NCBI RefSeq assembly: GCF_041886205.1
Contig: NZ_CP169030.1
Source: Escherichia coli
GTDB taxonomy: Bacteria > Pseudomonadota > Gammaproteobacteria > Enterobacterales > Enterobacteriaceae
Strand: one strand, 5' to 3'
DNA length: 64,000 nt
The stretch's first letter is position 1. Every line of letters starts with the position of its first letter. Positions 17,633 to 26,600 of the stretch are shown piece after piece. A program made the position numbers.

Positions 17633-20600
17633 TCACAATCAGTCGTTCAGAACGGGATATCGTCTGAAAACCCGTAATCCTCACCCTCTGGCGGTTGCGG
17701 CTGAGGCTCCGGCTGCGCGGCCTTACGTCCACGGCCTTTCGTTTTCGCGCCTCCTTTTTTCGTACCTGCCTCCGCCAGTGGTTCCAGCTGAGGCTGACCG
17801 CTGAACTGTTGCGCCTCTTCCGGCTGAGTCTGAGCACCTGCGGCACGTCCCAGCATCTGCATGGTGCCCGTGGTCTTAACAAGAATTTCAGTGACGTAAC
17901 GGGTGATACCGTTATCTTCCCAGCTACGGGTGCGAAGCTGGCCTTTGATGTAGACCTGCGCGCCCTTACGCAGATATTCACCTGCCACTTCCGCGAGCTT
18001 GCCGAACAGCACCACGCGATGCCATTCTGCCTGCTCCCGCATCTCCCCCGTCTGTTTGTCACGCCAGCTTTCTGACGTGGCCACCTGCAGGTTTGCCACT
18101 GCGCCCCCGTTGGGGATGTAACGGACTTCCGGATCTTTTCCCAGGCGTCCTACGAGAATGACCTTGTTAATGCCACGAACTGCCATGATGTGTCTCCTTC
18201 TGTTGATGTTTTCAGCCCCCATCATCTGTTGAGTTTCGGGAGCCGCGGTTTTGACGTTTTGCGGGAACCTGCTGCTGTATTCCCTGTGGTATGAACTTCA
18301 CCCGTTTGAGAACCTTCGCCGCAAGGGGCATCACTGCCACGGCCTGACGCCCCTGTCCTGGGCAGAACGCAAAATTTTTTACCGGGTTCTGGGTAAAAAA
18401 TTTTGTGGGCTGTTCATTTACCCTGGACAGTCAGTGCGGCAGGTTGTGGCTGTATCAGCCCCCGGCGACAGGGGCTTAAACAGGTGAATGGCACCGGACA
18501 CAACAACGGGCAGGGACCCGCCGCAACGACGTGAAGCGCGGTTTGCGAAACGGCGTTGCGCCTCACATCCCGGCGGCCTTTTGCCGGGATGCCAGGAGCG
18601 CAGGCCACGGCGCGACAGAGGCGGCGCGACCGGAACGGTCGCTGCAAGCCAGGGTTTCGCGTCAGGGATGGAAGCCCGCCAGGGCGGAGACAGCTTCGCT
18701 GGCTCCGTTCACGACAGCCCGCCCCGCCAGGGGGACGCCCGGAAAAGGCATAAGCAGGAGAACAACAAAACAGACAGTAATCAGAGCAGCAGAAAAAAGA
18801 AGAACAGGAGCAGTAGCAGGAACAACATCATCAGTAACAGACAAATGACAGGTCTGAAAAGACAGAAGCCCACAGCAGAATGTCCACGTAATGTAAGGGG
18901 CGGCGCGTCAGCGCGGCCCCTTTCACGCCACCGGCGCGCGGTCTCCCGGCGCGGGCAGACGGGCATTTATCCTCCCGCCTGCCCTGAGTCTTCAGGCACG
19001 CAGACGAATAATCATCGTCGAAGCATCGGTATAAGCAAACGTGCCGCGCGGCAGCTCCTCGCGGACGTCAGAAAACGGTAACAGCTTCTCCTGCTGGCGT
19101 GGCCCGTTGAGACAGACGGCGACCAGCACGCCACCCGGACGCAACAGGGAAAAAGCCCGCAGGATATGCCGGATATCCTGCCCGTGGCTGAACGGCGGAT
19201 TCATGATTATCCGGCTGTAATACTGCACCGGCTGCCATTCCATGAAGTCGCCACACTGTACCCTGACACCGTTAAAATTTTCCCGCAGATACCGGACCAG
19301 CCCGCTGTTAATCTCCACAGCATCACACATGGCCCCCGGCGCGGTATCCCGAATCGCCCGCAGTATGGCTCCGGTGCCGGCAGAGGGCTCCAGAATGTGA
19401 TCATGGTTGCTGATCTCCGCCAGCGTCACCAGGCGATCACAGACCGGGGCAGGTGTCACAAAGAGCTGAGATTCAGCCCGGATTTCAGCAACTGGCGCAG
19501 CGTTATCCAGCCTTGCGCGCATCAGCCGGATACGTTCTCTTAACTGACTGTGCATGTCATTATCTCCGTCATACCCCGGGGCTTTTCCCCGGGGATAAGC
19601 CTTATTTCTGCGGGATTTCCGTGATTTTCATGTCGGTGATATACACATTCACCAGGCGGAAATTATTGTCCATTGTGCGGCGGTAACGATATGCCCCGTG
19701 GTCTTCTGCCTCTGCCACACTGCGCACGGCCTTACAGTCCCGGGGCAGGGCGGCCCACTGTGCCTTTGTCATTTCCCGGAAACCTTCTCCCGGATAGTTG
19801 ACTACCGGCGGACGCTTCGCGGCCTGTCTGGCGACGGCGGCCTCTTCTGCCGATGGTGCTTTGTAGTCCGTGATGCGATCGGGCGTCACTTTCATCGTGC
19901 CGCTGTACCCGAGAAAACTGTAATTTGGCGTTGTGACTGAACTCACTGCCCCGTTGCTTTTGTTCACGCGGATGATGGTCAGCCACTCGCCCCGGCTGAA
20001 AACCTGTCCTCCCGGCTCAAAATCCTGTGTCCGGGTAACCACGCCGACGCTTTCTTCCAGCATGGCACGCTCATAGATCAGGCGGTTCTGATAGTGGTTA
20101 ACCCAGCGTTGCTGATGCTGAATCTGCCGTTCATGGCAGCGGATCGCAATTTCGCGGGCCTGCTCCGTGGTGATGATGTCATCATCCAGGGCCGACCATA
20201 ACGATCGACTTCCTTCATACTGGCTTTTTTCTGCCGGGCGCGGATACGTATCCAGCGGGAAACAGGCACTGATACGGTCACAACTGCTGATGAGTTTTGC
20301 CATATTCAGATCCAGCGATTCAGCCCGCCACATCGTCAGATATTTCTGCGACTGCGCGATGGTCTTTTCAGACTTGCGCAAATCAGCTTCGATTTTTTTG
20401 ATACGACGCCAGCGAACGTCCGGACGTTCTTTATACTTCGCGTGAAGCAGTGCCGACCGCGCCCGCTCCTCCCAGTATTCCGCACGTTCAAAGAGCATCA
20501 CGGCACGTTTCATACCATTTTCAATACGCTGCGCATCACGACGGGCGCGGCGTTCGCTGTGATGCCCCACAAGGATCGGCTGACCGGGCGGGATCATCGC

Positions 20601-23600: not shown

Positions 23601-26600
23601 GCCATGCCCCGCATGGCCGGGTAAAGCGGAGCCGCCGGCGACTTCCTTTTGCTCTGTCCGGGGACAGGCAGGAAAAGGCGGAGATTTTTCCCCGCCAGCG
23701 TCATCATTTCCGGATTTTCGCCAGTGCATCCGCCATGCTGCGGATTTCATCCCGTGCCTCCAGAACAACCTCCCGCAGAATATCCCGGTCAAACCAGCGA
23801 CGGGACGGTTCATCCGGTATACGCAGCACATCACAGACCAGACCACTGGCCAGGATATGCTCCACACACTCACAGACCAGGTACATTTCCACAGAAGAAA
23901 AACGGGCGCCACGGTTCAGAATGGCATCGAGCACCACGGGCAGATTTTCGTCATCTTCATCAAGCCAGCAGGGGTAATCGCTTTCCTTCACCACCAGGCG
24001 AAAGCGGCGGGTCTGGCGGGTCAGCAACGTCTGCCCGGTTGTGGTCAGCGCCGCCCGGATACGCCGTGTATCTTCTGCCACCCGGCAACTGACACTGCGT
24101 ACCGCATCGCGCACCGCCGCAAGTACAGCCCTGATTTCGTCTTCGGTCAGCCATTCGCCGGCATACGGGAAAGACACCTGCGTTCCGTCTGCCGGAAGTA
24201 CCGGCAGCGACTGCCACTGACTGCCGGACAGTACCAGTTCCGCCCCGGTTCCGGTCAGTTTTTGCATGGCGGAGGCCAGGACCGGCGGCAGTACGCAATC
24301 GTGGAGGTTGACGAGCAACGTCGCCAGCCGGGGCGCATCCAGCAGGACATAAATGCTGATCCAGCCCGGATAGTTCTGTGGATCTCGCTGATCAACATCC
24401 GTCTCCTCCGGCCAGCCCTGCGCCAGCAGCAGGTTGCGGGCGTGACGACAAATCAGTGCGTTCAGCGTGCTGCTTTCGTTCATGATTAAGCGTTCTCCCT
24501 GTATCGCCGCCCGCAGGGCAGGCGGCGATAACATCAGTCGTTTTCGTGTGTGTTGTTTTTCAGCAGGGTGCGGGCCTGATTAATCACCGCCTGACGGCGG
24601 GTGACGCATTCCGGGACGGTGAGGCCATGATCCCGGGCGGCCCATTCACGTTTCCACAGTGCCTGTTCAGCGGTCTGAATCAGGGACGCCAGCAGTTCAG
24701 CAGAGACGGTCACCTGGCGGTTTTCGCTCACGTTGCTGATAATCTCCATCGCCGCGACGGAAGAAATACCGGACTCAATCCGCTGGTCTTCCGGGATGTC
24801 CTCCAGGCGCGCCAGGACGGTCCTGATTTCATGATCGGACAGAGAAATATCCATCCCGCCAGCGAGGGCCTGAATCTCTTCCGGGGACCAGACAACCAGC
24901 ATCAGCGGCGTGTCTCCCTGATACTTTGCTGCCAGCTCCCGGCAGAGCGTTTCGCATGTTCCGTACATTCTCTTCTCCTTCTCAATCTTTGAAGCAGGAA
25001 TCCAGTTCCAGAATTTCGGTATATGCCTCCATCAGGAGGCGGTTTGCACGAAACAGCGTCTGACGCACCAGACGTTCCGACAGGGTGTCGGCATTAAAGC
25101 TGTACCGCTGCTCCATCTCATTCATGGTTGTACGCAGGTCGCACATGGCATTGGCCACCTCCGCCACCTCGGCGCGCAGTTTTTCGTGTCCGGCATAGTT
25201 CATTTACGCAGCCTCCGGTTCAAACCAGTTATCATTCGCGGCCCCCTGCTGCATGGCACGTTGCACGGCGGCCAGTCGTTGCTGTCCGGCACGGTGATAC
25301 TGTTCAAGCAGCTCGATACCGATATACCGGCGTCCGGACTGAAGGGCGGCCACGCAGGTTGAGCCGCTGCCTGCAAACGGGTCCAGAACAATCGCGTTCG
25401 GGTGTGTGAAGGTCTCAATCAGCGGTTGCAGGCTGGTAACGGGCTTTTCCGTCGGGTGATGGCGGTTGCCTGAATATTTCCAGCCCAGCACGTCGGGCAA
25501 TGGCTTCTGAGGCAGCGCCGGACGTCCTTTTGCCAGGATGTAAGCACATTCGTGACGGTAAGCGACATACGCAGATTTGGATGTGTAGTTTTTGGTGAAG
25601 ACCAGGTGGCCAACCACGCTGAATCCGGCGCGTTTCCAGGCTGCCATAAAGCGGTCAATGCGGTTCCAGCCATAGAAGCTGACCATTAACGCGTTTTTTT
25701 CAGCACGCAGTACATCTCATTACAGGCAGGTTGCAGCCAGTCATCGTTAACGTCACCGGCAATGGTGCGCCCGGAACGGTCACGGAAGCCCACCAGGTAA
25801 GGCGGGTCGGTTAATATGAAATCAATGGCGTTATCAGGGATACGCGCCATAACATCGATGCAGTTACCGAGGACAAAACGGGACATACAAAACTCCTTCT
25901 CTTACAGAGGGCACCGGGAGGGCCCCCCCTGTGGTGCCCGTTCCCCGCTGCCTGTGGGCTGTTCACCGCGTCCGGTAACGGGTCAGGCCGACCGTGGAAT
26001 ACCGCAGCCGTCGTCTTTTTGACGGCAAGGTTATGCCGCGAAAGCGGCTTGAAGGGCGTTCATCAGAAAAGGGCGACGGGCTGGCGTACACTGTCACCGA
26101 CGCCAGCCGGGAGCGCTAAAAGCGCCCGTCCCGTGCCCGGCCGGACGCGGGACACTGACCACAGGCAGCGTTCCTGCCGCGCCGCGTCAGCCGGCGCAGT
26201 AAAAAGAGGAGCCCGGCGACTTCCTTTGTCGGAAAAGAAACGGGCGGTTGCCCGCCCGTCTCCGTCATACTTCATCCGCCATAATGCGCCACCTTGTCGA
26301 CTATCCACTTCGGCGCGGTGACTTCCGGCAGTACGTTGTCACACAGACGGTTCCACCACGTCGATACTTTCTCGTTACTCCAGATGTCGCACCAGTCACC
26401 TCTTTTTGGGGTGAAAAGAGCAGTAATGCTTCCCTGACCTCATCCGGTAATCCTTCCCAGCGACGCTGTCCAGTACCGCTCTGTAACCAGAGTTCATGCA
26501 GCATCAGGCAGTTTTGCTCATCCAGAAGTACACCGTTCTGCAGGTGTGTCAGCCAGTGGGTGAACGCGATATTCTCAGGCGATACAACGCCACGTCCGGC

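Follow-up and report, generated by a model that had tools for sequence, protein, structure and literature searches.

A methylase gene split at an adenine tract in an F-like plasmid leading region is most probably an inherited slippage pseudogene

Results

Three anti-restriction loci in an F-like leading region

The window analysed here, a 64,000-nucleotide (nt) stretch of Escherichia coli contig NZ_CP169030.1, carries two methyltransferase (methylase) genes and a KlcA/ArdB-family antirestriction gene, and the second of the two methylase genes is split at a run of seven adenines (A7). An earlier note, made from the sequence alone, had placed these open reading frames (ORFs) at 18992-19555, 22864-23289 and 25204-25886, and all three were found there, on the minus strand (Table 1). 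It had also proposed that they form a restriction-evasion set in a plasmid leading region, with no endonuclease gene adjacent to the methylases. The first proposal is supported by the F nic site and by the gene families. As to the second, no nuclease domain was detected in the ORFs neighbouring the methylases with any of four profile libraries (Pfam, NCBIfam, PHROGs and PADLOC).

The region belongs to an F-like (RepFIA) conjugative plasmid backbone and makes up the distal part of its leading region. The 17-nt nic site of F is matched exactly on the plus strand, with 0.02 such matches expected by chance; the plus strand is therefore the transferred strand, and higher coordinates correspond to the leading region. 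The three anti-restriction loci lie 10.8-17.7 kb into the first-transferred DNA, all on the minus strand, and the transferred strand is the template of every listed minus-strand ORF between 17.6 and 26.8 kb. The leading region is bounded by sopC, followed by sopAB and repE of RepFIA, as in F. A methylase, KlcA and a second methylase make up the standard, already known restriction-evasion set of F-like leading regions, and their arrangement under single-strand promoters is the textbook, recently reviewed anti-defence kit of IncF and IncI plasmids. Among the gene families of leading regions, orphan methylases rank with the most enriched (PMC11541004), and two methylases together with klcA are recorded for plasmids R1 and pRK100 (PMC11602122).

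Table 1. Features of the plasmid region in the window (positions refer to the window; aa, amino acids)
Feature	Position	Strand	Remarks
traM	7459-7842		Beside the nic site
F-type oriT nic site	8156-8172	+	Exact 17-nt match to F, GTGGGGTGT before and GGTGCTTT after the nic; nic at 8165
SLT gene	8163-8765		Nic site falls between traM and this gene
Other copies of the Frpo-type direct repeat	10297-11027, 12805-13379, 21448-22021		Four-copy family, 0.6-0.7 kb
ssb	17647-18225	-	Last ORF of the minus-strand series
Frpo-type (class 1) single-strand promoter repeat	18193-18926	+	Upstream of ssb
Class I S-adenosylmethionine (SAM)-dependent methyltransferase, 187 aa	18992-19555	-	Intact; motifs QLFVTP, EPSAGTG, MNPPF
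DUF3560 protein, 453 aa	19602-20963	-	Pfam 2.2e-37; 46 nt upstream of the 187-aa methylase, co-oriented
76-aa ORF	21015-21245	-	With DUF3560 and the methylase, forms a module downstream of the Frpo copy at 21448-22021
KlcA/ArdB-family antirestriction gene, 141 aa from ATG	22864-23289	-	PF03230 Antirestrict 1.8e-26, 92.6 bits against a cut-off of 25
Structured intergenic region upstream of klcA	23294-23703	+	410 nt; 88% identical to the pESBL and F counterparts
C-terminal methylase piece, 160 aa	25204-25686	-	S-adenosylmethionine (AdoMet)-binding motif DPFAGSGST; PF01555 2.2e-27, profile positions 51-219
N-terminal methylase piece, 66 aa	25686-25886	-	Catalytic motif IV (DPPY); PF01555 profile positions 1-46
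A7 run, -1 frameshift site	25694-25700	-	T7 on the plus strand; A8 (Asn65) in the intact sister allele; AAAAAA-GAC (Asp65) in most alleles
Two decayed genes upstream of the methylase	25963-26780	-	'Internal stop' and 'incomplete' in RefSeq for sister plasmids; translations compared with intact copies

The split gene lacks a single adenine

Both pieces of the split gene match the Pfam family PF01555 (N6_N4_Mtase). On the coding strand the N-terminal piece ends with CTG AAA AAA ACG CGT TAA, and its stop codon overlaps the ATG of the C-terminal piece (TAATG). When the gene was aligned with an intact allele (NZ_CP095519.1, WP_000086171.1), the sole length difference within the gene was one missing A, A7 instead of A8, which agrees with the earlier observation that the frame is broken exactly at this run and would be restored by an eighth A. 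Adding one A yields a protein of 227 aa that is identical to WP_000086171.1 at 224 of 227 positions; 3 of the 11 codons that differ from this nearest intact allele alter an amino acid. The restored protein has DPPY at residues 27-30 and DPFAGSGST at residues 169-177, which is the beta-class motif order. With A7 in place of A8, the uninterrupted frame of 227 codons gives way to ORFs of 66 and 160 aa. The window contains 20 homopolymer runs of at least 7, three of which are of length 8 and none longer; an A8 run would thus rank among its longest.

The split gene as the IncF ortholog of M.EcoGIX

The restored protein is identical to M.EcoGIX of plasmid pESBL at 213 of 227 residues (94%), and to the F copy at 204 of 227 (90%), while the sister allele scores 491.7 bits against NCBIfam NF010253. 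Plasmid pESBL-EA11 has a single methylase gene (54782-55465), with neighbours as in the window. Yamaichi et al. (PMC4288162) identified this gene as M.EcoGIX and equated it with YfbB of R64 and YfeA of F. The F copy is named YubD in UniProt. The gene order DUF1281, hypothetical gene, methylase, YubE, DUF1380, YchA-like gene and KlcA is the same in the window, pESBL and F. The split gene sits in the leading region, is read from the transferred strand and has conserved neighbours, all as in an M.EcoGIX-type gene. These sequence comparisons identify M.EcoGIX (YfbB in R64, YubD/YfeA in F) as the enzyme to which the split IncF gene is orthologous.

The likeness to M.EcoGIX of the IncI1 plasmid pESBL extends to protein length, the beta-class order of DPPY and FAGSGST, the orientation relative to oriT and the upstream leader, which is 93% identical over 76 nt. 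The two genes differ in that the one in the window is cut by a -1 frameshift at codon 65 and encodes no full-length enzyme, that residue 65 is Asp in M.EcoGIX but Asn in the immediate ancestor of the window gene, and that the host plasmid is IncI1 in one case and IncF (RepFIA) in the other. M.EcoGIX is a promiscuous enzyme that forms N6-methyladenine (m6A) at SAY on single strands only, and it is made from the entering strand (PMC7736820, PMC4288162); its protection is lost when oriT is inverted (PMC7736820). A plasmid with M.EcoGIX deleted transfers up to ~1000-fold less well into recipients with EcoRI or EcoGIII, while maintenance and transfer to a non-restricting host are unaffected (PMC4288162). 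According to published work, plasmids with the wild-type methylase are restricted 10 to 10,000-fold by EcoKMrr, and the survivors bear methylase mutations.

DpnA of the DpnII system is another beta-class PF01555 relative, and solved DpnA-type chains match the plasmid enzyme at E about 6e-12. DpnA likewise methylates incoming single-stranded DNA and protects it during establishment. It differs from the plasmid enzyme in belonging to a restriction-modification cassette and in being GATC-specific, whereas the plasmid enzyme is orphan and promiscuous.

The A7 allele is inherited

The methylase gene is present in >5000 PLSDB plasmids. The four that match the window at >=99% all carry A7 together with the single-nucleotide polymorphisms of the window allele: NZ_CP061340, CP061338 and CP063154, from human isolates in Australia, and CP076277, from a Thai buffalo isolate. 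RefSeq labels the copies of the methylase in sister plasmids 'frameshifted'. The exact 66-aa and 160-aa products were each found on 28 contigs (NCBI, ENA and Logan), and the 66-aa product occurs in 42 blocks of the protein index; these blocks span draft, read-run and metagenome assemblies and are not independent isolates. One A7 contig was common to 17 read-run samples, and A7 was present in all 9 of the 9 places that were read back. The in-frame A8 protein of the window haplotype (Cys55, Cys60, Thr159) is absent among the about 15 billion proteins of the index, as are its A6 and A9 products.

The adenine tract is a slippage hot spot in the sister allele

Most alleles of the gene, including those of F, pESBL and Klebsiella plasmids, read AAAAAAGAC/T at this site, i.e. 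AAAAAA-GAC/T, encoding Lys-Lys-Asp. A minority allele has AAC (Asn) in place of GAC, which creates A8. The index holds 4674 blocks of the intact A8 allele against 86 with A7, 30 with A6 and about 9 with A9, so that about 2.6% are out of frame. For the A6 alleles, the A5 products amount to 0.3-0.5% (44 against 15113 intact blocks for F, about 15 against 3298 for pESBL), and no A7 product of either is on record in the index. In the short-query BLAST counts only listed matches, all of which span 44 nt, are read as A8, since A6 and A8 are indistinguishable in the others.

Several flanking backgrounds carry run-length variants and are also on record with A8 in identical or near-identical form, as in the pairs L038 (A7) and L048 (A8), and L045 (A9) and L053 (A8). 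The variants have thus arisen more than once. This comparison of backgrounds was ungapped and many upstream flanks are out of register because of indels, so that the usable part consists of pairs with zero or near-zero differences and of the downstream halves. Taken together, the sequence variants point to the A8 tract as a genuine slippage hot spot. The suggestion of the earlier note that this is a classic slippage site was right in this respect, as A7, A6 and A9 recur on the sister A8 allele.

A second frameshift allele, A6 (two bases short of A8; L024-L033), accounts for the 30 blocks given above and lies on at least three flanking backgrounds. Either two-step slippage has occurred repeatedly or one allele has been spread by recombination.

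Interpretation of the A7 allele

The earlier note had left three options for the broken gene: a sequencing artefact, a pseudogene or a phase-variable switch. The inherited A7 and the absence of an in-frame form favour the second, and we consider it most probable that the A7 methylase is an ordinary pseudogene, generated by slippage at a hot spot and inherited since. For an artefact, the true sequence would be A8, with one A lost in base-calling. Long-read homopolymer under-calling is common, and related records such as CP061340 have further frameshifts without a counterpart in the window, for example in the ParB-like gene. However, the identical A7 recurs on one haplotype in four independent complete plasmids from two continents and, over the 42 index blocks, in dozens of independent assemblies (short-read, draft and metagenome), whereas the A8 version of this haplotype was found nowhere. 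The excess of A8 over A7 in the sister haplotype (4674 against 86 blocks) further indicates that an 8-base run at this site is usually called correctly in assemblies. We therefore reject the artefact, which has next to no probability left. It is also very unlikely that the A7 allele is functional, be it through low-level recoding to the 227-aa enzyme or through assembly of the 66-aa and 160-aa pieces into an active methylase. Such function would be helped by a -1 ribosomal slip on G AAA AAA A or by a transcriptional slip that adds an A, each of which gives exactly the A8 product, and by the TAATG overlap of stop and start, which favours coupled translation of the second piece; the catalytic and cofactor motifs are all intact, and amino-acid changes from the nearest intact allele are few. 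Yet the heptamer is not a canonical X XXY YYZ in the zero frame, no Shine-Dalgarno-like element lies upstream, and the downstream structure is insignificant (z 0.19 and -0.73). The out-of-frame layout is not conserved, thousands of homologs being in frame, the ATG of the C-terminal piece is simply the native Met68 of the intact protein, and a split enzyme is without precedent in the M.EcoGIX family. A programmed frameshift or transcriptional-slippage gene was likewise rejected, as neither a stimulatory structure nor a conserved layout was found.

A further alternative is a contingency locus, in which A8 would let F-like plasmids toggle the methylase, the OFF state avoiding Mrr or methylation toxicity and the ON state giving protection; the window would then represent an OFF phase. 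The recurrence of A6, A7 and A9 on several backgrounds of the sister allele fits this idea, as does an out-of-frame share roughly 6-9 times that at the A6 alleles. The cost of the active enzyme in Mrr+ hosts and its benefit against EcoRI and EcoGIII are both documented. Nevertheless, we regard such a switch as improbable. The window haplotype is on record with A7 only and not with A8, A6 or A9, so that in-frame and out-of-frame lengths do not coexist within this lineage, as they do in the sister haplotype, and no event from OFF to ON is on record. In an enterobacterium proficient in mismatch repair, a run of eight is short for such a locus. Most members of the family have A6 interrupted by G, and the tract is thus not a conserved design feature; neighbouring genes have decayed as well, and part of the run-length variation is probably sequencing error. 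The gene resembles the methyltransferases of phasevarions in being an orphan methylase whose frame hinges on homopolymer length, with variants that recur in the sister allele. Unlike in phasevarions, the tract is of recent origin, only 8 nt long and missing from most members of the family; the window lineage is moreover fixed in the OFF state, no ON form being on record, and no reversible switching or regulon is known. The option of a phase-variable switch is thus unsupported for the window lineage. There is a small chance that the A8 made by Asp65Asn has turned the methylase of one F allele group into a low-rate contingency gene, i.e. a bet-hedging anti-defence switch of the plasmid. If so, OFF plasmids would escape Mrr and the costs of methylation, ON plasmids would survive classical restriction, and OFF alleles like that of the window might keep a trickle of full-length enzyme via a -1 ribosomal or transcriptional slip.

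Several points weigh against the inherited pseudogene at a hot spot. We infer the loss of methylase activity from the split of the gene, while both pieces keep their motifs and TAATG would allow translation of the second. A -1 slip of the ribosome or a slip of RNA polymerase on A7 could produce the A8 protein and thus possibly a low level of activity. A7 is known here from assemblies rather than from reads, and a mixed population of A7 and A8 in the source culture is possible. Some of the A7 and A5 variants elsewhere come from assemblies with many broken ORFs (L034, L037, L040, L058, L061 and L066), probably as homopolymer sequencing errors, which makes the share of 2.6% an upper estimate; the block counts behind these shares are not counts of independent isolates.

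The history of the A7 allele comprises three steps. An ancestral GAC-to-AAC change (Asp65Asn) fused the A6 run to the next A and so formed A8, replication slippage then deleted one A, and the resulting A7 allele was inherited unchanged. Neither the 66-aa piece, which holds DPPY, nor the 160-aa piece, which holds the AdoMet site, should be active alone. In intact plasmids, a methylase of the M.EcoGIX/YubD type would mark single-stranded DNA with m6A at SAY, leaving the new duplex partly protected from restriction. Since neither maintenance nor transfer to non-restricting hosts requires this enzyme, and since m6A makes DNA a target of Mrr, a modification-dependent Type IV restriction enzyme, the loss of the methylase was plausibly tolerated or even favoured, which would explain why it persists.

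The A7 finding carries little weight beyond correct annotation, as RefSeq already flags the copy as frameshifted. The tract itself presents a simple testable trade-off: one codon change creates A8, which yields several-fold more frame-breaking variants than A6, in a gene whose product renders the plasmid sensitive to Mrr.

Decay of neighbouring genes

Upstream of the methylase, the hypothetical gene of 103 codons (25963-26270) has a frameshift plus a premature stop, and the DUF1281 gene (26301-26780) is truncated to 159 of 308 residues. The plasmid SOS-inhibition gene psiA (14088-14849, minus strand) is frameshifted as well, with one G fewer than in F (CTGGCGGAATATCC to CTGGCGAATATCC). The site of this frameshift is not a long homopolymer, and RefSeq flags psiA as 'frameshifted' in NZ_CP061340 too. 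The lineage of the window is thereby a natural knock-out of the M.EcoGIX-type enzyme and of PsiA, and could be used to gauge their share in transfer into restricting hosts. In pSA31IncF (NZ_CP076277.1, locus L010), which carries A7, the 187-aa methyltransferase gene also has an internal stop, so both methylases are lost in that plasmid. Two other genes of this part of the window, psiB (14846-15283) and a ParB-like gene of 652 aa (15335-17293), are intact.

In order of transcription, the co-oriented minus-strand ORFs between 17.6 and 26.8 kb are the DUF1281 remnant, the broken 103-codon gene, the N-terminal and then the C-terminal methylase piece, a 73-aa YubE-type ORF, DUF1380, a 276-aa ORF, the 141-aa antirestriction gene, a second DUF1380, a 63-aa ORF, the 76-aa ORF, DUF3560, the 187-aa methyltransferase and ssb. 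The family assignments in this series are supported by Pfam.

KlcA/ArdB, the 187-aa methyltransferase and DUF3560

The antirestriction gene can be securely assigned to KlcA/ArdB by its sequence. Its product matches solved KlcA (2KMG) at E 8e-18 and 2WJ9 at E 2e-8, and the gene occupies the same position as the gene labelled KlcA/ArdB in pESBL by Yamaichi et al. Like KlcA of IncP plasmids (2KMG) and ArdB of R64, the product gives a full-length family match (141 against 142 aa), and its gene in the leading region follows a structured single-strand promoter region. In sequence, the protein is only distantly similar to IncP KlcA. It is predicted to inhibit Type I restriction in vivo; the published in vivo activity of KlcA/ArdB depends on the level of expression (PMC11602122).

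The earlier note had described the 187-aa protein as an intact DNA methyltransferase. An intact methyltransferase of the NPPF amino-methylase type it is, while the DNA substrate, which comes from homology, was slightly overstated. In Pfam, the protein matches generic SAM-methyltransferase models only (MTS, 28.8 bits against a cut-off of 23). Its three motifs (Table 1) are invariant or nearly so in 23 homologs, and motifs X, I and IV (NPPF/Y) follow each other in gamma order on a Rossmann fold. Among solved structures, the catalytic domain of M.TaqI is the best match (E 1.3e-6, 26% identity, query residues 33-135). Against PHROGs, E-values reached down to 6e-33, the matches being methylase domains in phage protein families of 1259-3925 residues and phage DNA-methyltransferase families. 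PADLOC gave mad2 at 1.4e-20 and also Type II methylases, and phage genes match at 39-43% identity. The AlphaFold2 (AF2) model has a predicted local distance difference test score (pLDDT) of 86.8, and its fold search against the PDB returned M.TaqI, tRNA, rRNA and small-molecule enzymes at similar E-values, as expected of a generic Rossmann methyltransferase fold. Weak matches were obtained to Erm/KsgA/PrmC models, including rRNA adenine methylases of the Erm/KsgA type.

No target-recognition domain and no adjacent specificity gene was found for the 187-aa protein, which ends at residue 187, among the neighbouring ORFs or with Pfam. It resembles gamma-class methylases of the TaqI/EcoKI type, having FxTP, ExxAGxG and NPPF in that order, and it matches the methylase domains embedded in DarB-like polyvalent proteins of phages and conjugative elements. 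The methylase domain of DarB-type polyvalent proteins has been placed among the EcoKI/TaqI-like adenine methylases (Iyer et al., PMC5512222). In contrast to all of these, the 187-aa protein is a bare catalytic domain, without target-recognition domain, helicase partner or LPD36 domain. It is probably a minimal, non-specific N6-adenine DNA methylase, a label that we infer in view of the missing recognition domain and the weak Erm/KsgA/PrmC matches; as such, it would probably methylate adenines of entering DNA with little specificity. Its family comprises proteins of 183-205 aa on Enterobacterales plasmids, and one cluster alone has 5718 member sequences.

The module of a Frpo copy, the 76-aa ORF, DUF3560 and this methylase is absent from F and pESBL and present in many IncF plasmids. 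Both the 187-aa methylase without recognition domain and its DUF3560 partner are very widespread; the DUF3560 protein matches 2437 database proteins at E <= 1e-5. The structural model of the DUF3560 protein, which is of moderate confidence, consists mostly of long helices plus a small beta domain; in the PDB it had no sequence match and, with this model, no fold match at E below 0.1. A hidden endonuclease in DUF3560 is unsupported, since Pfam, PHROGs and PADLOC revealed no nuclease signature and the PDB no sequence or fold match. The literature that was found mentions DUF3560 in passing only.

Single-strand promoter regions

The four Frpo-type copies are 86-96% identical to the region upstream of ssb in F, which holds Frpo, and each sits upstream of a minus-strand operon. 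In one copy, positions 18226-18620 of the plus strand fold into a long hairpin (z = -8.3). Such long repeats could also promote recombination inside the leading region. The region upstream of klcA yields a single-stranded DNA fold with z = -5.2, and we liken it to a class 2 promoter because it is homologous to the pESBL region in which a class 2 promoter was mapped. A 2025 study of pESBL mapped single-strand promoters of class 1 ahead of ssb-type operons, of class 2 ahead of klcA and ardA, and of class 3 ahead of M.EcoGIX, and showed up to ~500-fold induction in fresh transconjugants (PMC12672017). Short single-strand folds (110-146 nt) beside the genes gave no signal, which was obtained with full-length regions only. 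Immediately before the split gene, a stretch of 111 nt (25880-25990, including the 76-nt leader) forms only a small GC hairpin (z -1.0), and the region upstream of the DUF1281 remnant has only a moderate fold (z -2.35). Folding upstream of these two genes thus did not place the published class 3 promoter in the window. During transfer, the plus strand would enter the recipient first, from the nic at 8165, and the structured single-strand promoters, i.e. the Frpo-type repeats and the hairpin upstream of klcA, would drive the minus-strand genes before the complementary strand is synthesized.

Colibactin genes beside the RepFIA replicon

Beside sopB, what appear to be the sopC centromere repeats of the F partition system extend over 27063-27878, with ~19 tandem units of 43 bp; they were reported as 13 overlapping 300-nt copies with a spacing of 43 nt. 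Farther along the window, positions 43225-64000 hold the 3' half of the colibactin (pks/clb) island, from clbS to clbK, 99.6-99.7% identical to chromosomal copies. This part lies only about 12 kb from the RepFIA replicon (context 27000-43225). Between the two lie pifC, a KAP NTPase, a Tn3-family transposase (36231-39215), a TraD-like coupling protein (39742-41949) and a DUF4400 protein of integrative and conjugative elements (41921-43111). The clb part was found in no PLSDB plasmid, and the junction between the RepFIA side and clb in no complete RefSeq E. coli genome. Either the pks island is plasmid-borne here or an F-like plasmid has integrated next to pks, and this arrangement may be more unusual than the split methylase.

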